The notes below the pieces were generated by a model, which was given only the letters and a program-made list of their open reading frames with translations, was not told the DNA's origin and ran no database searches. From positions 640,001-704,000 of the forward strand of contig OY970194.1 in the NCBI GenBank assembly GCA_963708075.1: a stretch of DNA of 64,000 bases, in the 5' to 3' direction. Below are positions 12,354 to 64,000 of this stretch, piece after piece. Source of the stretch: Sedimentisphaerales bacterium. Its GTDB lineage: Bacteria; Planctomycetota; Phycisphaerae; Sedimentisphaerales; Anaerobacaceae. The stretch's first letter is position 1, and each line of letters begins with the position of its first letter. Made by a program: the position numbers and the translations under genes.

Positions 12354-12388
12354 TTGATGATTGATAATTGATGATGGATGATTTATGA
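12354..12388 (+). repeat. Degenerate heptamer tandem repeat (TTGATGA/TTGATAA/TGGATGA/TTTATGA) x5
   Basis: Five consecutive 7-mers fill the fprA-argH spacer; the argH ATG lies in the last unit. Confidence 0.85.
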
Positions 12389-13773
12389 CGGATACGCAGA
12401 GAAGCTGGGAGAAACGTCTGGCCGCCAAGCCGGACGAGTTGACGGTCGATTACGTTGAATCCCTGTCCTACGACAAGCGATTGTACAAGTATGACATTGT
12501 CGGCTCCATCGCTCATGCGACGATGCTCGCGGAACAGAAGTTCATCACGCAGCCGGAGCTCAAGGCCATCAAGGATGGGCTCGTCGCAATCAGCGAGGAC
12601 ATCGAGGCGGGGCGATTCGAGTTCGACAAGTCGTGCGAGGATATTCACATGGCCATCGAGGCGGCCCTGATCAAGCGGATCGGCGAGCCGGGACAAAAGT
12701 TGCACACCGCCCGCAGCCGCAATGATCAGGTCGCCACCGACATCCGCCTGTGGCTGCGCGACGAGATCGAGACCATGCAGGCCAAGATCGTCGCCCTGCA
12801 GAATGCCTTCGTGCAACTGGCGGGCAAGCACACGGAGGACCTGATGCCCGCATATACGCACATGCAGCGGGCACAGCCCGTCGTCATCGCCGCTTACCTG
12901 CTGAGCTTCGTCGAGCAGCTCGAGCGTGACTTCATGCGGCTGCGGAACTGCCGCAGCCTCCTGAATGCCTCGCCGCTCGGCGCCGGGGCCATTGCGGGCT
13001 CGACGCTGGCCATCGACAGGGAGAGCACGAGCCGGCAGCTTGGCTTTATCGATATCGTGTACAACAGCATCGATGCCGTTAGTGACCGCGATTTCTGCGC
13101 TGAATTCATCTTCGATTGCGCCCTCATGGCGGCGCACGTGTCACGGTTCGCCGAGGACTGGATCATCTTCTCCACGAACGAGTTCGCGTTCATCCGGATC
13201 GATGATGCGTTCTGCACATCGTCGAGCATGATGCCCCAGAAGCGAAACCCGGACGTGCTGGAGCTCATGCGGGCCAAGACGGGCAGCGTGTACGGGGCAT
13301 TGATGGCTATGCTCACGATCCTCAAAGGCCAGCCTTCCGGCTACAATCGCGACCTGCAGGAGGACAAGATCCACGTCTTCTCGACCGCCGACACGATGGA
13401 GAAATCGCTCGGTATCGCCGCGGCGGTGGTCTCTCATACGACATTCAACACCGGGCAGATTGTCGCCGGCATGGATGATGGCTTCCTCGACGCCACGGCG
13501 TTGGCCGAGTACCTCGTGGGCAGGGGAGTGCCCTTCCGCAAGGCCCACGGCATTGTCGGGACCCTTGTCGCCTGCTGCGAGAAGGAGAATAAGTCGCTGG
13601 CCGAGCTATCCTTGGATCAACTCAAGGAATATTCGCCCGCCATCAACAGTGATGTGTATGACTACCTCGGCGCCCGGAACGTCGTACGGCGCTACGTTTC
13701 CGCCGGCGCGGGTGGGCCAGAGCAAGTACGGCAGCAAATCGAGTTTTGGAAGAAGCACCTGGCAAAGCAATGA
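12385..13773 (+). CDS. argH: Argininosuccinate lyase (canonical)
   Basis: EDIHMAIE, HTARSRNDQ, YTHMQRAQP, SSMMPQKRNPD, YNRDLQEDK, PFRKAHGIVG. Confidence 0.96.
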   Translation: MTDTQRSWEKRLAAKPDELTVDYVESLSYDKRLYKYDIVGSIAHATMLAEQKFITQPELKAIKDGLVAISEDIEAGRFEFDKSCEDIHMAIEAALIKRIGEPGQKLHTARSRNDQVATDIRLWLRDEIETMQAKIVALQNAFVQLAGKHTEDLMPAYTHMQRAQPVVIAAYLLSFVEQLERDFMRLRNCRSLLNASPLGAGAIAGSTLAIDRESTSRQLGFIDIVYNSIDAVSDRDFCAEFIFDCALMAAHVSRFAEDWIIFSTNEFAFIRIDDAFCTSSSMMPQKRNPDVLELMRAKTGSVYGALMAMLTILKGQPSGYNRDLQEDKIHVFSTADTMEKSLGIAAAVVSHTTFNTGQIVAGMDDGFLDATALAEYLVGRGVPFRKAHGIVGTLVACCEKENKSLAELSLDQLKEYSPAINSDVYDYLGARNVVRRYVSAGAGGPEQVRQQIEFWKKHLAKQ

Positions 13774-50860: not shown

Positions 50861-51988
50861 TCATCTATCGGGGATCTGATTCACACGGGAGCTGCTGAAT
50901 ACGCCATGGAGCACATCGAGCTTCATGGTTTCTTCGCCTTGCGTTGGGGCGACGATGCCCCCCTCGCCAAACTCATTCCATGCGTAGATGGTGAAAGCTT
51001 TCTGTCCGGGGAAGCCTAATGGGCCTGTAGTCTGCAGGTCTTCACGCATCCTTTTGAGCACTTGGCCCCACTCCTGCCGCGTCGGGAAGGCGAAGTAGGC
51101 TCGCCGATCCGGCCATGGCCGTGGATTCCAGCCCGCGGCGACGTGAGGCAGGTAGGGGATCGCATCTTGCGCGTGCTTCTTTCGTCCCTCTTCCGTGAAC
51201 GCCGCCAACGTCGCGTAGGGGTAGTCATCCTGTCGCTGGTCCAGAGGCGGCACATCCATGTAGGTGGACGTGAAATCGAACAACTTCATAGCCCAGTGGC
51301 CTGTCGGGATTGGCTCGTGTCCCCCTACGCCACATCCGATCATCATCTCGCCTACGCCGGCTTGCCTGGCGGCTTCTCTGAGTCTGTCCAAACGCTGTCG
51401 GCACACGTCGAGGTTCTTTCCGCTCTGCACCAGGAAGTTGTGTCCGCCATGCACCTTGAACACGGCTTTGCCGCCGATTCGCAGATAGCTTGGGTGGGCC
51501 ATGCACTTGAGCCACACGGAGATGCATCTCTCCCAATCCTCGTCGCGCGTGACCTCATACCGCGGGGAGTTGCAGAAATCGATCATGAAGCGAAGCCGAT
51601 GCGCTTGTGGCGAATTCATGAAATCTGTGATGCCACGCTCAAGGTAGCGTGAATTCGGCTCCTTCTCCACACCGGGCGGATTGTAGTACCAGAGAATCAC
51701 GAAGAAATCGACGCCATGTTCTGCCGCGGCGACGATCTCGCGATTCATGGTTTCCTCGCAGTTGTATTGCCCCAACAGCGGAATCCGCTCGGGAAACTCC
51801 GGTCGCCAGTCCTCGCCCGAGCGGCTGTGCCATTTGTTCGGCATCGCCTCCCACCACCCGGGAAAATACGCGACGCCGACCAACACGTCGTCAGTTGGCG
51901 CACTCCTTACCGGTTCCGCGTCGCCGTATCCTCGCTCACACAGGCACAGCGAAAGCGCGGCAAGTGTCATTACCACCCGGTGCCACAT
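50861..51988 (-). CDS. Secreted GH99/GH71-like (beta/alpha)8 glycoside hydrolase-like protein
   Basis: Signal peptide; AYFPGW, PLLGQY, HGVDFF..WY, HPSYLRIGGK, GWNPRPW, YAWNEFGEG; starts 22 bp after the lyase stop. Confidence 0.75.
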   Translation of the reverse strand: MWHRVVMTLAALSLCLCERGYGDAEPVRSAPTDDVLVGVAYFPGWWEAMPNKWHSRSGEDWRPEFPERIPLLGQYNCEETMNREIVAAAEHGVDFFVILWYYNPPGVEKEPNSRYLERGITDFMNSPQAHRLRFMIDFCNSPRYEVTRDEDWERCISVWLKCMAHPSYLRIGGKAVFKVHGGHNFLVQSGKNLDVCRQRLDRLREAARQAGVGEMMIGCGVGGHEPIPTGHWAMKLFDFTSTYMDVPPLDQRQDDYPYATLAAFTEEGRKKHAQDAIPYLPHVAAGWNPRPWPDRRAYFAFPTRQEWGQVLKRMREDLQTTGPLGFPGQKAFTIYAWNEFGEGGIVAPTQGEETMKLDVLHGVFSSSRVNQIPDR

Positions 51989-52010
51989 GCCTATTGCCCT
52001 TGCTTGCGTC

Positions 52011-53522
52011 TTATCCGCCGATCAACTTCTTTACGGCCTCTTCCAGGCTCTGGTCTGCTGCTTTGAGAGCCTCGCATCGTTTGGCGTGACGATCCTGCGC
52101 CTTCTGGAGGTTCTGTCTTCGCCGTGTGACCATTCTGTGGACTTCCTTCGGCGCCACGGCGCCCTGGGACTTGTGCGCCTCTACGAAATGCATGGCGTCG
52201 AGAGCCTGCGCCAGGCCTTTGGGGTCCAGGTTCAGAGGCTTTCCGATGATTTTCACCGCCGCCCGGTCCACCACGTCCGTGTTGATGTCGGTGGCTGTGC
52301 CGCCTTTTTCCCACACCTCGTGGACGGACTCTCCGACAATGGCATGGGCAACGCGCAGGGGCAGATGAGTTTCACGGAACAGGAATGCGGCAAGCTCCGT
52401 CGCCGTGGAGAAGCCTCGCTGGGCGTGGCGGAGCATGATGTCCTTCTTGACAATCAGGTTGTTCAGCACCTTGTTGAAGGTGTTGATGGCCTTGATGACG
52501 TCAGCGACGGTGTTGGGGACGTACTCGCTGGCTTCGTAGACCTCGATCGTGTCTCCGTAGAGGGTGTTCTGAGCGCGGCAGACGATATCGCTGTAGCAGC
52601 CAAGCACCTTGCCGAGCGTGCAGCGGATCTCCTCGAAAACGCAGGGACTTTTCTTCTGAGGCATCATGCTCGACGCTTCACAAATGGCGTCGGTCAGCTC
52701 GATCATGTTGAATTCGAACGTTGCCCACCAGTGCATTTCGTTCGCAACCCGGCTCATGGGGATGGCCAGGTTGATCATCGCCGCGACCACATTCGTGGCC
52801 TGGTCCGTCGAGGCCACGCAATCATTCGTATGCTCCATCACGCGATCGAAACCGAGGAACCGGGCGGGCTTTTCCCGATCGACGTTGAAACTGGTCCCGG
52901 CAAGGGCCCCGCAGCCCAGATCGCATATGTTGATGACATCGTAGGCTTGCTCAAGCTGGACAGCGGCCCGGTCAACGGCCTCATACAGGCCCAGCAGATA
53001 ATGGCCGAACGTCATCGGCTGAGCATGCTGGTTATGGGTATATCCGGGCATCACGGCGTCACGGTATTCGTCCGCCCGGTCGAGCAGGTTCTGGCGGAAT
53101 TCCAGGGTGGCCTGGACCAGGGGCACGACCGCCTCCCGCAGTTTCATCCGGTACAGTGGCGGCGGGAGCGTGCGGCCGATATTGATATTGCCGGCGATGG
53201 ATCCAACCTTATCCATCAGATAGCGTTCAAACTGGACCCTCCACTTATAGAAATGCGGGTCGTAGCTTTGGATCATTTCCTCGATCGCCTTGTCGTCGAT
53301 GCGGCTCAGGGTCTTGAGGATCTCGTGCCCCTCGCCTTTGTCGATGATGCCCCGCTCGATGAGCATCACTGTCCAGGCTTTGTGGACCTTGGTGGCCCGG
53401 GGGATCTCGTCGTATGCCAGGGCGGCGAACGCCTTGCGACCCTCCTCCAAAGACGGTATTTCTTTCCCCCGCAGCCGGGAGTGTGTGTCGGGCTTGATGT
53501 CTCTGTAGTTTTGCACGTGCAT
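52011..53522 (-). CDS. Divergent argininosuccinate-lyase-like enzyme (aspartase/fumarase superfamily)
   Basis: MPGYTHNQHAQP, LGCGALAGTS, SSMMPQKKSP, STATELA, PLRVAHAIVG; lacks the ArgH HTARSRNDQ and YNRD motifs; RBS GGAG. Confidence 0.88.
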   Translation of the reverse strand: MHVQNYRDIKPDTHSRLRGKEIPSLEEGRKAFAALAYDEIPRATKVHKAWTVMLIERGIIDKGEGHEILKTLSRIDDKAIEEMIQSYDPHFYKWRVQFERYLMDKVGSIAGNINIGRTLPPPLYRMKLREAVVPLVQATLEFRQNLLDRADEYRDAVMPGYTHNQHAQPMTFGHYLLGLYEAVDRAAVQLEQAYDVINICDLGCGALAGTSFNVDREKPARFLGFDRVMEHTNDCVASTDQATNVVAAMINLAIPMSRVANEMHWWATFEFNMIELTDAICEASSMMPQKKSPCVFEEIRCTLGKVLGCYSDIVCRAQNTLYGDTIEVYEASEYVPNTVADVIKAINTFNKVLNNLIVKKDIMLRHAQRGFSTATELAAFLFRETHLPLRVAHAIVGESVHEVWEKGGTATDINTDVVDRAAVKIIGKPLNLDPKGLAQALDAMHFVEAHKSQGAVAPKEVHRMVTRRRQNLQKAQDRHAKRCEALKAADQSLEEAVKKLIGG

Positions 53523-53582
53523 CTTCTCCAAAATAAAAAATGGCTGTTTCAGCCATCGTAGTGAAACCAGAAATCCAGGAGC

Positions 53583-53646
53583 AGTCTATGGGTTATGTAA
53601 ACATGTCGAAACGCCATTTTGCGCCTTTCGACCCCCATTTTGCGCA
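53583..53646 (-). promoter_or_regulatory. Tandem-repeat operator plus -10 hexamer (copy A) upstream of the lyase
   Basis: CCATTTTGCGC at 53614 and 53635 (21-bp period); TAGACT 21 nt downstream on the minus strand. Confidence 0.75.
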
Positions 53647-53809
53647 CGGCATCCCCTTCAGGGGGCCAGAAAGCCATTCCGCATGGACGGACGGCGCGCC
53701 CTCGCCATTTGTCGGCTAATCTCACTTATACTCTACGGATGAGATTGCAGGCAAAAGTCCTGTTGGATGCAGCAGGGTCCAAAAGTGTGGTAGATGAGAG
53801 GTCGTGCGG

Positions 53810-54907
53810 ATGAACTCCAAGGAGCGAACGAGGATTGCCCTGACTCGCAGCGGCATCCCCGATCGCATCCCTGTGCAATTCGATTTGTGCAAATCCCTCA
53901 TCGAGTACTTTGCAGAAGAACTCGGAGTGCGGCCGGAGTACGCCTACTCCTATTATGAGGACCTCACCTATCGCATCTCGGCCAATGCCATTCGCACGCG
54001 GCTCGGCAGTGACGTGGTTGTCGTAGGCGGAACAGTGGCGGCCGGTTTTCACGCTGTGGAGCTGGAGGACGGGACTTCGCTCAACGAGTTCGGGATGAAG
54101 ATGCGGCCCACGCAGCTCTATGTGGAGGTGGTGGAGCCTCCGCTGAGGGACGTGTCCTCCATCGAGGACATCGAACGATATGCCTTTCCAGACCCGTATG
54201 CGCCCGGCCGATTCGACATCGCCAAGAAGGAGATTGCCAGATTCGGGAAAAAGTTCTTTGTCATCGGGGATTGCGAGCTCAGCCTCTTCGAGCTGGCCTG
54301 GCAACTGGTGGGGCTGGAGAGGTACATGATGGCTCTGGCCACAGAGGAAAAATGGCTGGAGGCATTGTCCGATAGAGTGGAGTACTGGACGACTCACATT
54401 GCGCTGCAGTTGGTGAAACTCGGTGTCGACGCCCTCTGGTTTGGGGAGGATTTAGGGACACAGACCTCGGTCCTGATGTCGCCGGCGATGTGGAGAGCCC
54501 GATTCAAGCCCCGCTACGTGCGCATGTTCCGCATGCTCAAACAGGTGAATCCCGATGTGATCCTCATCATGCATTCGGATGGGGCGGTGGCTCCGCTGTT
54601 GACGGATTTCATCGAGATGGGGGTACAGGTGTACAACCCTGTTCAACCGAACGTTCCCGGCTCCGGTCCGCTGGAGCTGAAACAGAAATACGGCGATTCC
54701 ATCGCGTTCTTCGGCGGGGTCGATCAGCAGCAGTTGCTGCCCAGCGGGGATGCCATCAAAACGTCGTTGGAGATCAGACGACTGTGCAGAATTATGGGCC
54801 AGAACGGCGGCTACCTGCTGGCGCCGGCCCACATCATCCAGGCCGATGTCAAGCCGGACATGGTCCGGCTGATGATCGATGCCGCAAAGGGGTTTGGGCA
54901 GTATTAG
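53810..54907 (+). CDS. Uroporphyrinogen decarboxylase-like (UroD/MtaA superfamily) protein
   Basis: PDRIP, GEDLGTQ..MSP..WR..FKP, MHSDG, NPVQP, GGVDQQ, APAH.IQ. Confidence 0.85.
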   Translation: MNSKERTRIALTRSGIPDRIPVQFDLCKSLIEYFAEELGVRPEYAYSYYEDLTYRISANAIRTRLGSDVVVVGGTVAAGFHAVELEDGTSLNEFGMKMRPTQLYVEVVEPPLRDVSSIEDIERYAFPDPYAPGRFDIAKKEIARFGKKFFVIGDCELSLFELAWQLVGLERYMMALATEEKWLEALSDRVEYWTTHIALQLVKLGVDALWFGEDLGTQTSVLMSPAMWRARFKPRYVRMFRMLKQVNPDVILIMHSDGAVAPLLTDFIEMGVQVYNPVQPNVPGSGPLELKQKYGDSIAFFGGVDQQQLLPSGDAIKTSLEIRRLCRIMGQNGGYLLAPAHIIQADVKPDMVRLMIDAAKGFGQY

Positions 54908-54947
54908 ACATCTCCGATTCTCTGGAGTCTTTAAGGGTGACACGAAG

Positions 54948-55262
54948 ATGAAACGAAGAGCATTCAAGATGAAGTTGAAGCCGGGTTGTGCGGCGGAGTA
55001 CAAGAAACGACACGACGAGATCTGGCCGGAGGTGAAGGCTTCCATAGCTAAATCCGGCATCTCCGACTATTCGATCTTCCTTGACGAAGAAACGATGACG
55101 CTATTCGCCGTTCAGAAGCTTAGCGAGAACAACACAGTCGAGGGGTTGCCGCGGAGCGCGGTCACCCGCAAGTGGTGGGACTATATGAAGGACATCATGG
55201 AGTGCAATCCCGACAACTCGCCCGTTCGCACCCCCCTGAAAGAGATGTTTCACATTGACTGA
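54948..55262 (+). CDS. rhaM: L-rhamnose mutarotase
   Basis: RAFKMKL, EYKKRHDEIWPE, YSIFLD, KWW.YM.DIM, NPDNSP, EMFHID. Confidence 0.92.
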   Translation: MKRRAFKMKLKPGCAAEYKKRHDEIWPEVKASIAKSGISDYSIFLDEETMTLFAVQKLSENNTVEGLPRSAVTRKWWDYMKDIMECNPDNSPVRTPLKEMFHID

Positions 55263-55275
55263 TCGCGCTCTCGTC

Positions 55276-55878
55276 TCACAGTTCTGCCTGGCGTATGCCG
55301 AGTTGCCTGTAGATCGTCGGCAGCTTTTGCCTGACGGCTTGTCGCACGTCCTCGTACAGACTCACGCCATGTGAATCCATCGCCACGATCAGCGGGCCGA
55401 AGTTTTTCACTCTGAACTTGTAGATCGCCTCGGGATGAAGCTGCGGCCAATAAACGTCTTCCACGGCTTCGATCTGCTTCGTCTCGATCGCAGCGGCGCC
55501 TCCGACGATGGCGAAGTAACACGCCCCGAATCGCATCATGGCATCGAGACTGCCCTGGTAGAGCCCGGATTTGCCGATGATGGCCCGCACGCCGTATTCC
55601 TCCAGCAGCGGGGCCGTGAACCTGTCCATGCGGGTGCTGGTCGTTGTGCCGACAATGATCGTTTCCCAGCCTTTGTCCGTCTTCTTGAGACTCGGGGCGG
55701 TATGCAGGACGGGATAACCGGCCAAATCGACAGGAGGGGCATTGTGCCCGTCGAACATGTGGATCAGAGTTTTGTCCCTCATGCCGAATATGTGGCCGCT
55801 GATTGTGACCACATCTCCGGCACGAAGAGAACGCATGAGTGCTTCGTCAAAGGGCGTGTTAAGAACGTACGACGCCAT
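55276..55878 (-). CDS. Fe-S hydro-lyase beta subunit (fumarate hydratase/tartrate dehydratase C-terminal type)
   Basis: LRAGDVV.ISG..RD, GTTTSTRMD, IIGKSG, GGAA, FGPLIVAMDSHG.SLY. Confidence 0.9.
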   Translation of the reverse strand: MASYVLNTPFDEALMRSLRAGDVVTISGHIFGMRDKTLIHMFDGHNAPPVDLAGYPVLHTAPSLKKTDKGWETIIVGTTTSTRMDRFTAPLLEEYGVRAIIGKSGLYQGSLDAMMRFGACYFAIVGGAAAIETKQIEAVEDVYWPQLHPEAIYKFRVKNFGPLIVAMDSHGVSLYEDVRQAVRQKLPTIYRQLGIRQAEL

Positions 55879-55889
55879 AGCCGCGGCCC

Positions 55890-56769
55890 CTAAAAACCGT
55901 ATTCCACTCTGCCGTCAGCCCAAATTCTGCGCGGCGCGTCGTGCCGCCCAGCATTGCGTGTTGACGGCCACCGGATTCTGCGTGATGTGCGTGTATGCCC
56001 ACTCGATGTGAACGGCCAGCGTCGAAACATCGCCCCCAAGACCCATGGGACCACTGCCCGTGGCGTTAATAGCTTGCTCCAACTGTTCTTCCAGCTCTGC
56101 AAACAGGGGGTCCGGGTTCCTCGTGCCGACCGGACGGGCAATCGCCTTCTTGGCCAGTACGCCCACCAGGTCGAATGTTCCGCCGATACCGACGCCGATG
56201 ATTCCCGGCGGACACGGATTGCCCCCAGCGCCTGTGACGGTGTCAATGATGAACTTCTTGACGGCACCCAGCCCCTCGGCGGGGGTGAACATCCTTACAG
56301 CACTCACGTTCTCGGAGCCCGAGCCCTTGGGGATCATGAGGATGTCGAGGCAGTCGGCCTGCGGGTCGAAATCCCAGTGGATCACGGGCAACCCGGCACC
56401 GACGCTCGTCTGCGGATTCTCCCGGGTCACAGGATGCAGCGAACTGCCCCGGAAGGGATATTCGAGAGTGGCCCGCTGTGCCCCCTCGGCGAGAGCGGCC
56501 CTGAGTTTCGACCCATCGACGGCGATCCGTCCCCCGATTTTCACCATGTAGACAGGCAACCCCGTATCCTGGCAGATCAGCATGTCCTGCGTGTCGGAGA
56601 CTTCGATGCTCTTGAGAATGGTCTCCAGAATGGTCTTTGCGGTGGGTTTTGTCTCCCGCGCATGGGCCTTGCGAATGGCCTCCTTGACGTCGGGCGGCAG
56701 AACCTTGAGCGCCCTGATATAGAGTTCCTTCGCAACCTCCTGCACAAGCTGGTAATTCAGTCCGGTCAT
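55890..56769 (-). CDS. Fe-S hydro-lyase alpha subunit; apparent frameshift at ~55930
   Basis: ICQDTG, KGSGSEN, GNPCPP..GVGIGG, GPMGLGG, VAVNTQCWAARR; likely C-terminus RIWADGRVEYGF* in the adjacent frame. Confidence 0.9.
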
Positions 56770-56781
56770 CCCCAGGATGCT

Positions 56782-57915
56782 CTAAAACTTCAAGTAAGAT
56801 CCTAAACTTGTTACCAATAGCCAGGACACCACGCCGACGGAAACAGCCGCGATCAGCCCGCAGACGAAAGGTTTATAACCCAGCTTCGTCAGCTTGCGAA
56901 TGTTCGTATTCAGGCCGATGCAACTGACGGCGATGGCTATCAGATACGTCGCTGATGTTTTAACAAAATCGCAGGTGCCCGTCCAGCTGGCGTTTGCACT
57001 GCCGAAAGCGTAGTCGCCTAATGATCGCAGCAGGACGACAACGATATAGCCAAGCACGAACAGAGGAATGTACTTGGCGATCTGCCAACCTTTTGCAGAG
57101 GCGTTGCGGGCGTTCTTTCTGGCGAACAAGTATCCCAGGACCGGAATGACGAACACCATGAAGGTGTTTCGCACGAGTTTCGTCGTGATCGCAATATCCG
57201 CCCCGGTCAGCCCCGTTGCTGTCTTGTGCGCCCAGAGTTGGTCGTAGATCAGCGACGACGCGGTGACTTGAGATGTATCATGGACGGCGGTGCCCAGAAA
57301 GAACCCTGCCGCCGCCGGGCTCAGGTGCAGGAAGGATTCGGCCATGTAAGGATATACCATTGTGGCCAGAATTCCGAAGATGGTGATGGTCCCCACGGCG
57401 TAGGCGATCTCCTCTTCTTCGGCCTCGATGGTTGGCGCACTGGCCAGGATGGCGCTGACGCCGCAGATGCTTGTGCCGGCCGCCACCAGCGTCGCCAGCT
57501 TCTCGCTGATCCCCAGCCTCTTGGCCACGAACGCCGTGATGGCAAGACCTGCCACGATGCAGACAAAAACCATGCCTACCGCTACGGCTCCGATCTTGAG
57601 CACGGAAAGGATGCTCAGACGGATACCCATCAGGATGATTCCCAGCCGCAGGAGTTTGCTGAGCCCGAACTTGATCCCCGGCTCCAGCTTCGCCGGCAGA
57701 GGAATCGTGTTCCTGACGAGCAGGCCGAGAATGATCGCAACAAGGATGGGGCTCAGGAGACTCTCCTTCCAACCCATGGCCTTGCCAATCGCGTTGGCGG
57801 CGACGGTGCCTGCGAGCATCACCAGGACCGCTACAACCACTCCGGGCAGCAAAACGAGAACATTCTGATTGCCGAACAACACATCCTTCAGTACGGCGGA
57901 CACTCCACGCTTCAT
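56782..57915 (-). CDS. YeiH / putative sulfate exporter family membrane protein
   Basis: LLRLGIILMG, GTSICGVSAI, GTAVHDTSQV, TKLVRN; about 10 TMs. Confidence 0.9.
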   Translation of the reverse strand: MKRGVSAVLKDVLFGNQNVLVLLPGVVVAVLVMLAGTVAANAIGKAMGWKESLLSPILVAIILGLLVRNTIPLPAKLEPGIKFGLSKLLRLGIILMGIRLSILSVLKIGAVAVGMVFVCIVAGLAITAFVAKRLGISEKLATLVAAGTSICGVSAILASAPTIEAEEEEIAYAVGTITIFGILATMVYPYMAESFLHLSPAAAGFFLGTAVHDTSQVTASSLIYDQLWAHKTATGLTGADIAITTKLVRNTFMVFVIPVLGYLFARKNARNASAKGWQIAKYIPLFVLGYIVVVLLRSLGDYAFGSANASWTGTCDFVKTSATYLIAIAVSCIGLNTNIRKLTKLGYKPFVCGLIAAVSVGVVSWLLVTSLGSYLKF

Positions 57916-57936
57916 GATATCCTCAAATTGACTTGG

Positions 57937-58776
57937 CTATATCGTGTAATCCTGCGGCGCCCCAACGGCATCGTGGTACTTCTTCCAGTGTTCTTTCCTC
58001 AGGACGCCTATCGTGTCGCCCCGAAGGCCGGCTCGCAGCGCGGCCGCCGCCAGGATATCCTTCGGCTGGACGTTGCCAATGCTGGCGCCAGGTCCATATT
58101 TCATGTAGATCGACTGCTGCTGGTCCTTGTTCGGGGCTTCGATCATCGTGTTCTCCAGCCCCACAGCCTGGATGATCGTGCCCAGTTCCTCGAAGTTGAC
58201 TTCGCCGCTCTTGCTCATGACACCGATGCCCTTGCCGGATTCCCTGGCCTCGATGATCACCATGGCCGCGCCGCTTCGGAGGTCCTTGGTCATGAGCTCG
58301 ATCCGCCTGTCCAGCGTAATGGCCGCGTCTTTTGCCGCGTCTTTTTTGCCCACTTCCGAAATGACCGTGAATCCCGCCTGAATGCACATCTGGATAATGT
58401 CGGCCCGGCGTTCGTCGGGGATGTAGATCGTGCCGTCGGAGAACTCCAGGTGCGTGAATCCCAGTGACTTGGCGTACTTGAGGTATGGCCCAAGACACTT
58501 CTTTGTGTAGCCGCCGGCACAGAGGATCGCTACCTCCGTCAGGGTCCCCCCGATCATGGGGCTGATCCCGGATTTCTGGTAGATCTCGACTTTCTCCTGC
58601 AGAATTTCTTCGTTGTACAGGCTCGCCGTTCCAAACGTGCACTTGACGATATCCGCCAGCCCGGCGGCGATGTTGACCCAGTCGTCTGCGCCGACCGGCC
58701 CGAATTCCTTCTCGATCACCATGATCGCACCGTTCTTCTGCGGAACGGGGATGAACTTCTCGAATGCTCTGGCCAT
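57937..58776 (-). CDS. comA: Phosphosulfolactate synthase (ComA family)
   Basis: GT.SLY..L.EK, GGTL.E, EFSDG, SEVGKK, IEARESG, EAP, GNV, LRAGLRGDT; RBS AGGAG. Confidence 0.88.
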   Translation of the reverse strand: MARAFEKFIPVPQKNGAIMVIEKEFGPVGADDWVNIAAGLADIVKCTFGTASLYNEEILQEKVEIYQKSGISPMIGGTLTEVAILCAGGYTKKCLGPYLKYAKSLGFTHLEFSDGTIYIPDERRADIIQMCIQAGFTVISEVGKKDAAKDAAITLDRRIELMTKDLRSGAAMVIIEARESGKGIGVMSKSGEVNFEELGTIIQAVGLENTMIEAPNKDQQQSIYMKYGPGASIGNVQPKDILAAAALRAGLRGDTIGVLRKEHWKKYHDAVGAPQDYTI

Positions 58777-58848
58777 GTGTTTCTCCTGCTCCTTTATCAT
58801 TTGAATCGAGCGATGTAGAAGGCGCTTGCGCCCATGAGGTGGTTCTCT

Positions 58849-59892
58849 TTAACCTGTCAGTCCTTCCCAGCAGTTGTCCGAGCCCGCAACGACTTTGACT
58901 GCACGATCGACGTAGTTGAGCAAGCCATCGACGGCCTGGTATCTGCCTCGCATGAGGGCGGGATTATCCAGCCCTGCGGTGGGGATGTTGTCATACAGCA
59001 AGATGTTGGACGCGATCTTCTCGCTGATGTTGTCGAAAAGGGCCTTTTGTGTAACTCGTTTGTCCTTCAGATGGCTGATGAAGTTCTTATGCCGTCCTTC
59101 CTCCACGCGGGGCAGAATCAGGGTGATCCTGGGAGAATGGATCGTGTCCGACGCGGTCTGCATCTCCCCCAGATCGACGGCCACTTTCCTGCCCCACTCG
59201 TCGTCCGTCTCGGGCAGTTGCTCTTTCAGTTTCTCCAGGAGAAACGGGTAGCTGTACTTCAGGTTGCCGATCCGGATGTTGTCGACGACGGCGCCTTTGT
59301 AGAAGATGGGGCCGTGATCGAGGTAGAAGTGCGTCATCTCGGCGGAAAACAGCTTCAGGCCCAGTTCCAGTCCTCTGGCCAGCAGGCAGCTCTTGCCGCT
59401 GCCGGTGGTGCCGGCGGCGATATAGAGATGGTTCGCCTGCTCATTGTAGAGCGAACAGGCGTGAAGGCTGTAGATGCTGTGCTTTTTCTCCAGCATCATG
59501 AGGATATACCGGAAGACGAGGCCTTCGTTGCCGAAGAGGGTATATCGCAGATCCGAGGCCTGCTCGGTGGCCTGGAGAATCGACCCGGTCAGTTGAATCT
59601 GCCCGTCGGATACCTTGACTTCAATGGGCTGATCCGCCACATCGGTCATGGTGATGTAGAAGTCCAGCCCTTTGTCGCGGTACTCGATGGGCTCGATCTC
59701 GTGAAAGTCGGTCAGCAGGGATTCGAAACTGGCGGAGAAAAAGAGCTTGGGAAGCAACTGTTCGTTGTTGGCCGTAATCCCAAACGTGACCTTGAGCACC
59801 CGGAAGGCTTTCTTCACGGCGGAGTGAGTGCTCGTGATCGAACTCAGATCTTTATGGCTCGCACTTGCACTGTGCGATGAAATCCGACGCAT
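58849..59892 (-). CDS. HPr-kinase-like P-loop protein, unknown function (start uncertain)
   Basis: LHACSL...AGTTGSGKS...LFSAE arrangement of the HPrK/PEPCK-like P-loop family. Confidence 0.65.
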   Translation of the reverse strand: MRRISSHSASASHKDLSSITSTHSAVKKAFRVLKVTFGITANNEQLLPKLFFSASFESLLTDFHEIEPIEYRDKGLDFYITMTDVADQPIEVKVSDGQIQLTGSILQATEQASDLRYTLFGNEGLVFRYILMMLEKKHSIYSLHACSLYNEQANHLYIAAGTTGSGKSCLLARGLELGLKLFSAEMTHFYLDHGPIFYKGAVVDNIRIGNLKYSYPFLLEKLKEQLPETDDEWGRKVAVDLGEMQTASDTIHSPRITLILPRVEEGRHKNFISHLKDKRVTQKALFDNISEKIASNILLYDNIPTAGLDNPALMRGRYQAVDGLLNYVDRAVKVVAGSDNCWEGLTG

Positions 59893-61276
59893 GATCCAAT
59901 GTCTCCAATTCCTGTATGGATGTGATGATTGCCTCTGCCTTATCAGCGGGGCAGATTCCGGAGAATTCCGCGCACCCTCGAAATTTGGCGATCGTATCGG
60001 CCATCGTCATGGCCTTGGGACTGAGGATTTCACGGATTGTATAGGTCTTACTCAACTCTCTGCCGTCCCTGGTCGTCACTGTCACTGTGTGAGGCTTGTC
60101 CACGTGGGGAGGGAAATCATCCTCGATCCGGACGTATCCTCCGGGCACTTCGCGGTTGGCCACAATGCGGATTCTCGTCGCCAGCTCCGCGACCTCCGTA
60201 TCCTTGCTCACCTGTCGATCCGTGAACTCCGCCAGGCCTGCTCGTCGGCGCAGCAATGCCACCGCCACTCCGTAGGCGGCGGAGAACTGGGCATTCACCT
60301 GGGGGGTGTCTCCCATCTCGAAAGGCTGGCCGACCAGGTTCTCGCCGTCGGGACCTCCATGAATGTAGATGGTGACATCTTTCAGGTCGTCCTTTCGAAG
60401 ATCGTACTGCTGAGCCAGATCCAGCGCCGCCTGGGTCACAGGGTGGGCCAGGCCGCAACTGGTGAAGCGTTTGATCGTGTTGCGCTCAATCTCAAAGAAG
60501 CCGCGGCTGCGACGTATCTCCTCCTCGGAGGGAGGGGCCACGTTGATGTAGACCCTGAACAGCCCGGCGTCCCCTTCTGCCGCGTGCTCCGGTCCCGTGA
60601 GTCCTCGTCCCGCCAGAGCTGCCGACCAGACCGCATTTCTGGCGGCAAACGCCGGCTGCAGCCGCTTCGTCAGCGTTTTCTCGAACAGGGCTTGTCGGTT
60701 GCCGCTGGCCTGTGCGTAGTTGATTCCCATGGCATTGACTGTCTGGTCCACGCTGTAGCCCAGCAGCCGACAGGCCGCCGCGGTCGCGCCGAAACCACCC
60801 ACGACACTGCTGGGCAGAAAACCTCTTCCCTGCGGCCCTTTGCGTAACCTGTTGTATGGCATTCCCAGCCTGCAAGCGGTCTCCACGCCTAAGATGATGC
60901 CGTCGAGGAGTTCCCCGCCGGTGGCATCCGTCATCTCTGCTGCGGCCAGGACGGTCGGCATGACAATGCTCGTGATGTGAAGAGCAGAAGGGTCGTGCAG
61001 GTCGTCGTAGTCGAGGGCGTGGGCCATCACGCTGTTCACGAATGCGGCATTGGGCGCCGGCACCTTGGACCCATACACCAGAATCGTCGATTCCTCTTTC
61101 CCGCTCCATTCGCGTATCTGCTCGAACAGCTCACGAATCCCAGGAGCATTCCAAGCGGCGACGCTTACACCGACCGTATCGAGAATCAACTTCCTGCACG
61201 CATCACGCGCGCTGGTGGTGATTGCATCTGAGCTCGTCTTAACGGCCATCTCGGCCAGTATTCTTGTCAGCGACAT
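59852..61276 (-). CDS. MmgE/PrpD family protein
   Basis: ILDTVGV..A, AAFVN..AHALDYDDLH, GVE..CRL, KRLQP..AAR, IKRFTSC..AH, AQFS..Y, KF. Confidence 0.92.
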   Translation of the reverse strand: MSLTRILAEMAVKTSSDAITTSARDACRKLILDTVGVSVAAWNAPGIRELFEQIREWSGKEESTILVYGSKVPAPNAAFVNSVMAHALDYDDLHDPSALHITSIVMPTVLAAAEMTDATGGELLDGIILGVETACRLGMPYNRLRKGPQGRGFLPSSVVGGFGATAAACRLLGYSVDQTVNAMGINYAQASGNRQALFEKTLTKRLQPAFAARNAVWSAALAGRGLTGPEHAAEGDAGLFRVYINVAPPSEEEIRRSRGFFEIERNTIKRFTSCGLAHPVTQAALDLAQQYDLRKDDLKDVTIYIHGGPDGENLVGQPFEMGDTPQVNAQFSAAYGVAVALLRRRAGLAEFTDRQVSKDTEVAELATRIRIVANREVPGGYVRIEDDFPPHVDKPHTVTVTTRDGRELSKTYTIREILSPKAMTMADTIAKFRGCAEFSGICPADKAEAIITSIQELETLDHASDFIAQCKCEP

Positions 61277-61413
61277 AGCAACGTCAACTCGGTTGAAGGA
61301 TGCAGCAACGCAGAGATCCCGCAGCGTCGCGGCGTCGGTCCAGATTGACAGACACCGGCTTCGGCATAACTGATTGTCATCCGGGATAAATCTTCGATCA
61401 GGCACATATCTCC

Positions 61414-61477
61414 CTTGTACGGCATCCCGGGACCGGAACCAACACCAATTCGCGCTATTCTCCCCCCGTTTTGCGCA
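61414..61477 (-). promoter_or_regulatory. Operator copy B plus -10 hexamer upstream of the prpD-comA operon
   Basis: 61441-61477 matches copy A at 29/37 positions; TACAAG 21 nt downstream on the minus strand. Confidence 0.7.
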
Positions 61478-61657
61478 TCAGCCCTGGAACGATTGCAGGC
61501 TCTCCGTTGAAACCGGAGCATGGGAACAGGAGCGCTGGCGGACCGCACATACTGCCTGCGCCGTGCACTCTGTGACGGGCCAGAGGACCCATTCCGTTCT
61601 CCCGGCGAATTCGATACGGCCCGTATATCCGGCACAGACGGCACACCGAAGCCTTGA

Positions 61658-61722
61658 TGCGCAAAATGGGGGCGGAAAAGGCGCAAAGTGGCGTTGGGGT
61701 ATCCGGGCGGGACAGCTACAAT
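61658..61722 (+). promoter_or_regulatory. Operator copy C plus -10 hexamer upstream of uroD2-SSS
   Basis: TGCGCAAAATGGGGGCGGAAAAGGCGCAAAGTGGCGTT (61658-95) then TACAAT at 61717, 21 nt downstream. Confidence 0.75.
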
Positions 61723-61810
61723 CCCTTCCGAAGGATGATTCCGGGTTTCGCAGGCGATGCCCGGGGATCGCCCGTGTTCGTCTCAGGTCGGCTGATCGTC
61801 AAAAGCAGGT

Positions 61811-62791
61811 GTGAATGGGATGGCAGGCACCGACATGACAGGACCCTCCGAGAATCGGTTCGTGAAGACGCTGCGGCGCACGCCTACGGACCGAGTTCCA
61901 ATCTTTGAGCACGTAATCGATGCGCGTTTTGTCAATCACGCGATTGGCCTGGACCAGCGGAGCCTGGATCTGGCCGCTGAGCCGTTTGCGCGGCTGGCCC
62001 GATATATGCACATGGATATCGTGACGATGGGCTATCGTTCCCGGGTGCCCGGCACGCGCACACGGGAGGATCTGGCCGCGATGCGATTGGCGGACCACGC
62101 GGAATTCCTCCGCCGCGTGGACGATTTCCTGCGGATACAAAAGGAAACGGGGCTCGGTGTAAATGTGTACGTGCACGGCCCCTTTGACTCTACCTACTTG
62201 TCAATGGGGTACGAGACGTTCTTTCTCAACCTTGCCGACGATATGGGCTTCATCGAAGCCATGATGGAGGTTTTCACGGAGGACGCTGTCGCCATGGTCA
62301 AAGCGCTGATCGCCAAAGGGGTGACCACGATCGAGCTCGTTGACGACATTGCCTATGCCAAGGGACTCTTCATCAGGCCGGACATCTTTCGCAGGCTGTG
62401 GATGACGCGTATGGAGAAGATCCTCGAACCCATCCACAGTTCCAACACTCCGGTTTTCTTTCATAGCGATGGTGACGCCCGTCAGTTCATCGACATGGTG
62501 CTCGACCTTGGCTTTCTCGGGCTCAATCCGGTCGAGCCACAGTGCAACGATATCGTCGCATTGAAGAAGGAGTACGGCGAGCGCATCACGCTGATGGGCA
62601 ATCTGGAAATCGGCGGAGTGCTCGCGTCGGGGACGTGCGACGAGGTCCGAAGGGAAATGAAACGATTGTTGGAGCAGATGATGCCGGGGTATGGCTACGT
62701 CGCCATGTCGTCGAACTCCCTGGCCAATTGCGTCGTGCCGGAGAACTATGTGGCTATGGTGGAGACGGTGCTGGAATTCGGCAATTATTGA
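61811..62791 (+). CDS. Second UroD-like superfamily protein (start may be 61820 or 61835)
   Basis: TDRVP, MGYETF, DDIAY..GLFIRP, FHSDG, NPVEP, GN, SSNSL. Confidence 0.85.
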   Translation: MNGMAGTDMTGPSENRFVKTLRRTPTDRVPIFEHVIDARFVNHAIGLDQRSLDLAAEPFARLARYMHMDIVTMGYRSRVPGTRTREDLAAMRLADHAEFLRRVDDFLRIQKETGLGVNVYVHGPFDSTYLSMGYETFFLNLADDMGFIEAMMEVFTEDAVAMVKALIAKGVTTIELVDDIAYAKGLFIRPDIFRRLWMTRMEKILEPIHSSNTPVFFHSDGDARQFIDMVLDLGFLGLNPVEPQCNDIVALKKEYGERITLMGNLEIGGVLASGTCDEVRREMKRLLEQMMPGYGYVAMSSNSLANCVVPENYVAMVETVLEFGNY

Positions 62792-62832
62792 CCATTAGAA
62801 GTTCGATGCCCGCAGGGTCTGGAGCGTATTAG

Positions 62833-64000
62833 ATGCAGTCAGGGTTGAGCCTTCTGGACATCATCGTCCTCGTCGCGTACTTTGCAGTCATCATTGGAAT
62901 CGGCGTATGGTCGTCCCGCCACGTCAGGAACCAGGAGGACTATTTCCTCGCGGGACGGCGATTCGGCAAGCTCGTCCAAACGTTCACCTCTTTTGGAACA
63001 GGAACCAACGTTGAGAGTATCGTAGGGGTCGCCGCCACGACGTTCACGAATGGGGCCGCGGGGATTTGGAGCTCGCTCGTCTATCTCTTCGTCACTCCGG
63101 TTTACTGGCTGGTTGCCCCGTGGATGCGGCGTCTTCGCGTCCTGACCATGGCGGATTACTTAGAGGAACGGTATGGCTCTAAAGCTATCGCGGGCCTTTA
63201 CACGTTGGTGGCGACCCTGGTCACAATCGCGCACTTGTCCGTAGGCTTCAACGCAGGTTCCAAGACGGTGATGGCGCTGTATCCTAAGGGCATCGAACAA
63301 CTGACGGTTGCCGAGACGGAGGAGCTATCACGGGCGCAGGAATTGGAGCGGCTCCAAAAATCGGACTATGGGATCCTGTCCGACCAGGAAAAGGACCGCC
63401 TTGACCAACTGCAGCGCGAAGCGCCCCGAAAGGCGTTCTCTCATATCGACAAGAACATATTCATCTGGATCATCTGTATCATCACGCTGATCTATGGCAT
63501 CTCCGGCGGCATGGAGGCGGCTGCACTGGCGGATGTTCTGCAGGGCATGTGCATCATCTTCATTACCCTCATCGTCTTTCCCTTCTGCTGGGCTCAGATC
63601 AACGAGGTCTATGGCGGCAGCGGCGTGATGGACGCCCTGCAGACAATGCACACGCGGCTGCCTGAGTCGTTTTTCGATATCCTTGGCTCGCCCGCTCTGA
63701 TGGATTTCACATGGTTCTACATTGCCGCTCTTTCGATGATGACGATCAGCAACACGCCGGCCCAGGGCCACTTTTTGACGGGCAATGCATCGGCAAAGAA
63801 CGAGTTCGCCTGCCGATTCGGATCGATATGTGGAGGCTACATCAAGCGATTCTGTGCCGTCTTGTGGGGATTCTTCGCGCTCTGCGCCCTGGCCATCTTT
63901 CACGATAAGATCAATGACCCTGACCTGATGTGGGGATATGCCTCCCGCGAGCTGCTCGGTTCCGCCGGCTTCGGCCTGCTTGGACTCATGGTCGCGGGCT
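62833..64000 (+). CDS. Sodium:solute symporter (SSS) family (runs off window edge)
   Basis: Manual translation: MQSGLSLLDIIVLVAYF...EDYFLAGRRFG..FGTGT...TMADYLEERYG...YGISGGMEAAALADVLQG...GLLGLMVA. Confidence 0.9.
   Translation, partial: MQSGLSLLDIIVLVAYFAVIIGIGVWSSRHVRNQEDYFLAGRRFGKLVQTFTSFGTGTNVESIVGVAATTFTNGAAGIWSSLVYLFVTPVYWLVAPWMRRLRVLTMADYLEERYGSKAIAGLYTLVATLVTIAHLSVGFNAGSKTVMALYPKGIEQLTVAETEELSRAQELERLQKSDYGILSDQEKDRLDQLQREAPRKAFSHIDKNIFIWIICIITLIYGISGGMEAAALADVLQGMCIIFITLIVFPFCWAQINEVYGGSGVMDALQTMHTRLPESFFDILGSPALMDFTWFYIAALSMMTISNTPAQGHFLTGNASAKNEFACRFGSICGGYIKRFCAVLWGFFALCALAIFHDKINDPDLMWGYASRELLGSAGFGLLGLMVAG

Follow-up and report, generated by a model that had tools for sequence, protein, structure and literature searches.

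An orphan P-loop gene beside comA as a marker of a candidate sulfonate-degrading route in a Sedimentisphaerales bacterium

What does a gene of the phosphosulfolactate synthase family (comA) do beside genes for an orphan P-loop protein, an MmgE/PrpD-family protein, an argininosuccinate-lyase-like (ArgH-like) lyase, an iron-sulfur (Fe-S) hydro-lyase and a YeiH-family exporter? The question is raised by positions 50861..64000 of a 64,000-nucleotide stretch, hereafter the window, of contig OY970194.1 of a Sedimentisphaerales bacterium (genome 7.5 Mb, 92.8% complete). We propose that these genes form a co-regulated cluster for a probably undescribed catabolic route, from sulfoacrylate via (R)-sulfolactate and phosphosulfolactate to phosphoenolpyruvate (PEP) and sulfite, and put the probability of this reading at about 0.55. 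The argument starts from gene content, linkage, an operator and conserved residues, adds a predicted fold, and reaches every substrate and direction by inference.

A conserved pair of genes

All genes named in an earlier note on this DNA were found at their place and on their strand. Those central to the argument are:

58849..59892, minus strand: orphan P-loop protein, no Pfam family, predicted mini-PEPCK fold (PEPCK, PEP carboxykinase); candidate sulfolactate kinase, core
57937..58776, minus strand: ComA, phosphosulfolactate synthase family (PF02679, E 7.6e-67; TIGR03849, 249 bits vs cut-off 280); predicted sulfite-releasing lyase, core
59852..61273, minus strand: MmgE/PrpD-family protein (PF03972 and PF19305); candidate C2 epimerase or dehydratase, accessory
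56782..57915, minus strand: YeiH-family exporter (PF03601); likely sulfite/sulfate export
55915..56769, minus strand: Fe-S hydro-lyase alpha subunit (PF05681), frameshift at the 3' end; candidate sulfoacrylate hydratase
55276..55878, minus strand: Fe-S hydro-lyase beta subunit (PF05683)
52011..53531, minus strand: ArgH-like lyase of the RT-x-P clade (PF00206 and PF14698); candidate sulfoacrylate-forming C-X lyase or hydratase, accessory
62833..64000, plus strand: sodium:solute symporter (SSS; PF00474) of 729 amino acids, extending beyond the window end, with a 66% ortholog in the related locus L027; candidate substrate importer

The earlier note described a tightly spaced minus-strand run, and this description is borne out: prpD, the P-loop gene, comA, yeiH and the hydro-lyase alpha and beta genes follow each other with successive gaps of -41, 72, 21, 12 and 36 bp, and the Pfam families agree. 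The prpD open reading frame (ORF) spans 59852-61405, with a likely start at 61273.

Gene neighbourhoods were collected with an alignment of 50 P-loop proteins as query, giving 106 loci (the best 80 of 114 from species genomes and at least 26 from metagenomes). The comA gene lies 3' of the P-loop gene in 97 of these loci, and is directly adjacent in 94 of 96 ORF pairs; in the other nine loci the contig ends at, or within ~50-130 bp of, the P-loop match. The loci span Planctomycetota, Aminicenantes, Armatimonadota, Chloroflexota and others, and use two different ComA clades. A P-loop gene without adjacent comA in uncut DNA was seen once, as the second copy in the present genome. The converse linkage is weak, with a P-loop gene within 1.5 kb of one of 16 other ComA matches in the phylum sample, and the P-loop family occurs in 4 of 251 genomes of the order.

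The earlier note treated the whole gene set as one unit, and suggested a neighbourhood search for comA, prpD, the P-loop gene and the ArgH-like lyase. P-loop gene and comA do occur together, but prpD and lyase join them in only one of the 106 loci, and the entire cluster was therefore rejected as a single conserved unit. YeiH is present in 10 of the loci and the hydro-lyase pair in five (one a distant 38% copy). PrpD had no match in four of five genomes checked, where ArgH matches were at the ordinary level only (28-30%). At E ≤ 1e-70, the lyase was found in this genome alone among 401 genomes of the class.

Other associations of comA were also seen. At seven loci of the phylum (L012, L015, L016, L018-L021), a distant ComA member (~24% to that of the window) lies beside a PrpD gene; loci L200 (5025-7916) and L201 are listed with the same pairing. 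Since the P-loop gene is absent from the seven phylum loci, we regard this as a separate pairing. In L202 (3761-9937, genome G008), comA is followed by an ArgH-like lyase gene and then by a gene resembling nonribosomal peptide and polyketide synthases (AMP-binding, KR, carrier and thioesterase domains), possibly a sulfonate natural-product cluster that uses sulfoacrylate. Aminicenantes-type loci (e.g. L107, L080, L097, L101) contain a mannosylglycerate-hydrolase-like GH63 gene, present in 63 of the 106 loci and convergent with comA where mapped; in the same context a UbiE-type methyltransferase gene occurs in 55 loci and a glycosyltransferase-like gene in five.

The P-loop protein, which the earlier note called HPr-kinase-like, belongs to a compact family (198 representatives, ~325 amino acids, no named member, unnamed Atlas clusters). 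It has no Pfam match, TIGR04352 is its only model match (E 0.0097), a PDB sequence search with the family profile returned Walker A noise only, and no plasmid match was found. The predicted model (pLDDT 89) has a two-domain mini-PEPCK fold: Foldseek retrieved ATP-dependent PEP carboxykinases at E 1.3e-9, and VIA gave Z 13.2 over 261 residues with an rmsd of 4.5. The likeness to HPr kinase holds for ~120 C-terminal residues (Z 9-10), but the protein as a whole is modelled as a small PEPCK. A beta-sulfopyruvate-bound PEPCK entry is, by its title, among the fold matches.

Across 135 family rows, H144, G161 and K167 are invariant (135/135), while E185 is kept in 133 rows and R207 in 129. H144 and K167 align with PEPCK H232 and K254 (hhalign, 34 columns covered), and E185 and R207 correspond to D269 and R333 by motif position. 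No lysine pair stands at positions 125-126, the by-eye equivalents of the KK motif (K212/K213) of PEPCK. The natural inference from this model is a phosphotransferase for a small hydroxy-acid, a fold alone being no proof of function.

The direction of ComA

Residues E119, E149 and K153 of the window's ComA align with E103, E133 and K137 of the M. jannaschii protein, which we take to be the metal-site glutamates and the catalytic lysine. The protein falls in a divergent clade of six rows with D30E and E253A; most ComAs of the pair keep the standard motifs. YeiH or TauE is encoded in all five other loci of this clade, and in 12 of the 106 P-loop loci overall. YeiH is reported to drive sulfite resistance in Salmonella.

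The neighbours of the P-loop/comA pair vary by genome and fill two slots, possible supply of (R)-sulfolactate and possible handling of sulfite. The supply slot holds LarA racemases (L032, L036, L072, L105, L106), Ldh_2 proteins (L038, L063) that match the L-sulfolactate dehydrogenase model best, though below cut-off, a D-2-hydroxyacid dehydrogenase with an aldehyde dehydrogenase and a transaldolase (L046, L063), type II (archaeal-type) GAPDH and/or a PGK paralog (L025, L032, L105, L106), the hydro-lyase pair (L023, L024, L027, L119) or, in L053, an SDH-like flavoprotein next to a TAXI transporter. Beside the pair, GAPDH and PGK possibly provide an ATP-yielding step from sulfolactaldehyde to sulfolactate. 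The sulfite slot holds YeiH, TauE (L026, L029) or a molybdopterin oxidoreductase (L119).

A published module for S-sulfolactate combines racemisation (SlcC/ComC), SuyAB and TauE (PMC12421959, accessible part). By analogy, the pair loci appear to mirror this layout, with kinase and comA standing where suyAB stands. The UxaA/SuyB family (PF04295) gave no match in the present genome, with controls positive in 5 of 14, and a gene of this family occurs in only 4 of 24 pair-carrying genomes, mostly incomplete metagenome-assembled genomes picked for diversity.

Relatives of two further enzymes lie next to SuyAB-like genes. The alpha subunit of the hydro-lyase shares 49% with a Methylobacterium plasmid paralog vs 38% with the other alpha subunit of this genome, and the beta subunit 46% vs 35%. 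On the Methylobacterium plasmid pMRAD01 (L213), the hydro-lyase relative adjoins SDH-like genes, TauE and a SuyAB-like two-subunit UxaA pair. The two top relatives that the lyase has on plasmids (37%) are haloarchaeal (L151, L152), and lie with an SDH-like pair, TauE, a SuyAB-like UxaA pair and TAXI, one of them also with Ldh_2. The ArgH-like lyase of L151 and L152 takes the place of the Fe-S fumarase paralog of L213, and may thus constitute another type of sulfoacrylate hydratase. The haloarchaeal SuyAB-like proteins gave no tblastn match in the present genome. Conversion of 3-sulfopropionate via sulfoacrylate to sulfolactate is reported from Roseovarius nubinhibens in a thesis cited in the accessible part of PMC11489063.

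In the route that we propose, SSS would import a 2-substituted 3-sulfopropanoate. By analogy with the catabolism of iminodisuccinate (IDS), PrpD would act as a C2 epimerase and the lyase would split off the substituent at C2, releasing sulfoacrylate, the sulfonate mimic of fumarate; this feeder is possible, with the odds somewhat against it. Alternatively, PrpD may dehydrate or racemise (S)-sulfolactate, with the lyase as a second hydratase. The fumarase-like Fe-S pair would then hydrate sulfoacrylate to (R)-sulfolactate, the PEPCK-fold P-loop protein would phosphorylate (R)-sulfolactate with ATP, ComA running in reverse would cleave phosphosulfolactate to PEP and sulfite, and YeiH would export the sulfite. 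Kinase and ComA would perform C-S cleavage in place of SuyAB, yielding PEP instead of pyruvate. The earlier note's proposal of a new route on a sulfonated carboxylate is upheld insofar as a sulfonate pathway is the best reading. Its catabolic option let ComA consume sulfite; the comparative evidence points the opposite way, to ComA releasing sulfite from phosphosulfolactate in the SuyAB slot.

Several observations weigh against this route. As many as 80 of the 106 loci represent one Aminicenantes-type context and are not independent (the other 26 span several phyla), and neither exporters nor racemases recur next to these 80, which give no directional clue. Some loci look biosynthetic, with comB in L072, an APS kinase fragment in L074 and a nucleotidyltransferase in L026 and L032. 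The earlier note saw no comB, comC, comD or comE in the window; a comB-family gene is indeed absent from the locus, but an unlinked one exists elsewhere in the genome (C1:6333840-6334325). The Rhodococcus hydro-lyase locus has SDH-like genes and a weak SuyA-like match only, with no SuyB, and a third lyase relative on a plasmid (34%) lacks sulfur genes in its surroundings. The label SuyAB itself refers to two-subunit UxaA architecture and context, not to a family model. No sulfoquinovosidase, sulfoquinovose (SQ) isomerase, sulfofructose-phosphate aldolase, ComC-like or TauE match was found in the present genome. Finally, the support is genomic, and a rough estimate has sulfite addition by ComA as the favoured direction, so that its reversal needs the push of the kinase, the use of PEP and the export of sulfite.

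The opposite direction must hence be weighed. ComA would add sulfite to PEP, the P-loop protein would replace ComB by passing the phosphate to ADP or Pi, and the sulfolactate would leave the cell or be incorporated into a sulfosugar or solute, with an XcbC-like lyase, in a biosynthetic or sulfite-detoxifying role. Sulfite addition is the sole direction in which ComA has been characterised (PMC9457059, accessible part), and ComB is absent from 21 of the 24 pair genomes, which fits a ComB-replacing role equally well. The GAPDH and PGK reactions are reversible, nucleotidyltransferases occur in some loci as mentioned, and TauE can export sulfonates too (PMC11489063, accessible part). Yet L046 and L063 encode an irreversible-type aldehyde dehydrogenase with a transaldolase, several loci encode importers (SSS, DASS, TAXI), and APS kinase is the sole sulfate-activation gene among the annotated loci. 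Moreover, the hydro-lyase and lyase relatives are tied to SuyAB-like genes, and the lyase shares 26% with XcbC and falls outside its group in a quick tree. We therefore consider forward use unlikely.

It is less likely still that this ComA homolog no longer handles sulfite. Kinase and an enolase-like lyase would then serve another L-configured 3-substituted lactate (e.g. L-glycerate from L-sugars), and the remaining genes would be a loose sugar regulon. The divergent clade with its D30E and E253A changes would fit, as would RhaM and the rhamnosidase-like genes within or close to the regulon and the lack of a sulfur gene in most Aminicenantes-type loci. The recurrence of YeiH or TauE, also in the five other loci of this clade, speaks for sulfite, however, as do the SuyAB-linked relatives of hydro-lyase and lyase and the standard motifs of most pair ComAs.

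A shared operator and a possible supply of sulfoacrylate

Aligning the intergenic regions revealed a two-box motif. Its copies in the window, each supported by motif alignment, pattern scan and weight matrix, and the remaining genes are:

53610..53645, plus strand: two-box operator 5' of the lyase gene
61441..61476, plus strand: two-box operator 5' of the prpD-fumB operon
61659..61695, minus strand: two-box operator 5' of uroD2-SSS
61811..62791, plus strand: UroD-like protein 2 (PF01208), operator-linked; a 74% ortholog lies directly 3' of the lyase gene in L027
54948..55262, plus strand: L-rhamnose mutarotase-like gene, rhaM (PF05336; TIGR02625 above cut-off), probably associated; 63% ortholog within the L027 cluster
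53804..54907, plus strand: UroD-like protein 1 (PF01208), membership doubtful; no L027 ortholog (24%)
50861..51988, minus strand: GH99/WbsX-like protein (PF14307, E 8e-8) with a signal-like N-terminus, 3' of the lyase gene after a 22 bp gap

The pattern occurs at eight sites in the 7.5 Mb genome and at none in 6 Mb of base-shuffled sequence. This confirms the earlier note's view that the lyase > GH-like unit and the uroD2 > SSS unit share an operator with the prpD run. The uroD2-SSS unit (gap 41 bp) is divergent from prpD. The plus-strand uroD1-rhaM unit lies within the span, and none of the operator copies points towards it; the GH99/WbsX-like gene was found in none of the 106 P-loop loci. 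Seven of the eight sites cluster at two loci. At or near the window they precede lyase, prpD, uroD2-SSS and, just past the window, a prepilin-type > LamG > GH106 unit; at C1:2.93 Mb they precede a third uroD, another prepilin-type > LamG > GH106 unit and the second P-loop copy. With the weight matrix, on which the training sites were scored circularly, seven sites scored 40.9-47.5, the next 33.5 and then 19.4. The eighth, weaker operator-like site (C1:4419410-4419445) lies 5' of a gene that we take to be a GH51 arabinofuranosidase. Promoter and terminator scans gave results at chance level only.

In L027, the same motif precedes lyase and prpD, and the same genes form a single block (50-75% identity); uroD2, the third uroD, rhaM, SSS and the AraC regulator all have orthologs there, that of the AraC regulator apparently intact. 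Because the operator recurs and L027 keeps the genes together, at least two genomes regulate lyase and prpD operon as a single system. Elsewhere the motif was found once, with two mismatches, in genome G643, and not in genomes G550, G596 and G007. The second P-loop copy (C1:2929948-2931011; 98.7% DNA identity, two residue changes, own operator) is divergent from the uroD whose ortholog sits within the L027 cluster, and is followed by a rhamnosidase-like BNR gene (below cut-off) in place of comA, as if the cluster had recently been split or duplicated.

Two further candidates were rejected. A larA / yihU-like / transaldolase-like locus at C1:3.685-3.694 Mb was considered as an upper pathway; it lacks the operator and reads like a glyoxylate/glycerate locus. 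The UroD-like neighbours do not qualify as pathway orthologs across phyla, as they are only 23-34% alike except for the pairs between L027 and this genome, which has 19 URO-D matches.

Near 55930, a one-base frameshift in the hydro-lyase alpha gene replaces the C-terminal ~15 residues of the product. Six close relatives were compared, and all keep the normal end (one relative is 100% identical over 98% of the query), and the nearby AraC regulator gene (C1:705097-706270) and both GH106 genes (C1:711936-715015, C1:2922042-2925081) are likewise split across two ORFs. These frameshifts are therefore probably assembly errors of the long-read type.

The lyase departs from ordinary ArgH in two motifs: SRN, which we take to be a carboxylate-binding motif, is replaced by TLP, and KxN of the SSxMPxKxN signature by KxS (KKS). 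The genome's own argH (window 12385-13773) keeps both, although the lyase scores 292 with TIGR00838 (cut-off 279.5). Its nearest solved structures are 6RX8 and 6G3D (E 1e-56), presumably entries of the ethylenediaminedisuccinate (EDDS) lyase type. In the quick tree, the lyase stands apart from XcbC, itself a long branch. Among 251 genomes of the phylum of genome G973, inspected loci had ordinary ArgH motifs except L166, whose genome has no P-loop match, and this set was discarded as a source of the lyase clade.

The nearest solved structure of PrpD is IDS epimerase (E 6e-25). Of seven residues of that enzyme, taken from the accessible part of PMC12290011 and including the second base Tyr145, the equivalents of H85, D88, H99, K198 and K266 are kept, and in a pairwise alignment F and S apparently stand at Y145 and H150. 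Relatives of prpD and lyase are adjacent in L149 (62%, 51%) and L198 (51%, 30%), both in genomes that carry the P-loop/comA pair, and a more distant couple occurs in L194. L149 (1-6745, genome G486 C1) further holds a polysaccharide lyase family 8 gene, followed, up to the contig end, by a uroD and by second genes for an RT-x-P lyase and a PrpD. Several RT-x-P lyase pairs lie on equal-sized longest contigs (52339, 11207, 10587, 27975, 187911 and 56493 bp), a hint of two paralogs per cluster. Three contig sizes (102683, 22340 and 8612 bp) are common to genomes with RT-x-P lyase and hydro-lyase homologs; this, too, is a hint only.

Could these enzymes act on ordinary C4 dicarboxylates instead? 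PrpD and lyase would free fumarate from an IDS-like compound, the hydro-lyase would be a fumarase, the P-loop protein a small PEPCK, and ComA would trap sulfite with PEP. Each enzyme is homologous to a dicarboxylate enzyme, L029 encodes a malate dehydrogenase above cut-off, the LarA of L032 is nearest to malate racemases, the present genome has no match to the E. coli-type PEPCK, and all characterised MmgE/PrpD substrates have a 1,4-dicarboxylate backbone (PMC12290011, accessible part). However, the strict linkage of P-loop gene and comA would be left unexplained, the genome encodes another hydro-lyase pair at a different site, and the KK motif of PEPCK has no evident counterpart (by eye; hhalign covered 34 columns). 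The presumed carboxylate-binding motif SRN is likewise missing from the lyase. We consider this explanation improbable.

Returning to sulfoacrylate as the product, the GH106 genes of the regulon, the rhamnosidase-like gene, RhaM and SSS suggest a glycoside as the source of the sulfonate. Single-protein queries with the E. coli sulfo-EMP proteins YihQ, YihR, YihS, YihT and YihO gave no match in this genome at E 1e-8. A fuller reading would be a complete, separately regulated route for a natural sulfonated glycoside or amine, comprising glycosidases and SSS, a PrpD epimerase, a new lyase clade, an Fe-S hydratase, a mini-PEPCK kinase and reversed ComA; in this complete form we find it rather doubtful.

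Significance and comparison with known systems

Sulfolactate is a junction product in the breakdown of sulfosugars, 2,3-dihydroxypropane-1-sulfonate (DHPS) and cysteate, and SuyAB is named as its cleaving enzyme in the accessible parts of the literature examined. Searches for a sulfolactate kinase or a reversed ComA retrieved no paper describing such a route, most subscription journals being outside their coverage. If the proposed route is true, kinase plus reversed ComA would represent a different chemistry of C-S cleavage, the orphan P-loop family would gain its first function, and many comA genes of uncultured anaerobes would have been misread as belonging to coenzyme M (CoM) synthesis. The locus also adds candidate enzymes for the formation and hydration of sulfoacrylate, steps found mentioned only via the thesis cited in PMC11489063 (accessible part), and points to an as yet unnamed natural sulfonate.

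The earlier note held that the gene set matches neither CoM synthesis nor the IDS and EDDS pathways, and the comparison agrees. With the Xanthobacter XcbA-E pathway (PMC9457059, accessible part) it has in common ComA (37.6% to XcbB), an argininosuccinate-lyase-like protein and the likely intermediates phosphosulfolactate and sulfoacrylate. In contrast, kinase, PrpD, Fe-S hydro-lyase, exporter and importer are added here, the lyase motifs differ (243 bits with the XcbC model NF052535 vs a cut-off of 575) and the predicted flux is opposite. XcbA, XcbE and hydroxypropyl-CoM lyase gave no tblastn match in this genome, and XcbD matched at 25% at a distant locus. As for the archaeal set, this genome has no Ldh_2/ComC-like match, TIGR03846 stays below cut-off and the ComB family is unlinked. 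CoM synthesis, archaeal or bacterial, was rejected on the missing XcbA, XcbE and ComC, the lack of an XcbD ortholog and the divergence of the lyase from XcbC.

With IDS epimerase plus C-N lyase and with EDDS lyase, the locus shares an MmgE/PrpD protein and an ArgH-like lyase under one operator, as well as the nearest solved structures. It differs in the low similarity given above, the apparent Phe for Tyr145, the change of SRN to TLP and the predicted product, sulfoacrylate instead of fumarate.

The P-loop protein resembles PEP carboxykinase and HPr kinase in the two-domain fold, Walker A, the His and acidic metal ligands and the Arg of N-x-R; at ~325 amino acids vs 520-620, it is shorter, has 9-13% identity and shows no evident KK motif.

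The 3-sulfopropionate route of the Roseovarius nubinhibens thesis (via PMC11489063, accessible part) is alike in the hydration of sulfoacrylate, here assigned to the Fe-S hydro-lyase. This cluster contains no SDH paralog, and sulfoacrylate must therefore come from another source; moreover, its predicted ending is kinase and ComA, not SuyAB. The SlcC/ComC-SuyAB-TauE module of Chromohalobacter and Paracoccus (PMC12421959, accessible part) is alike in the predicted (R)-sulfolactate substrate, the sulfite product, the clustered exporter gene and the racemising enzymes that precede the route in related loci. It cleaves with SuyAB to pyruvate, whereas the present locus would use ATP-dependent phosphorylation and a TIM-barrel ComA, with PEP as the predicted product.

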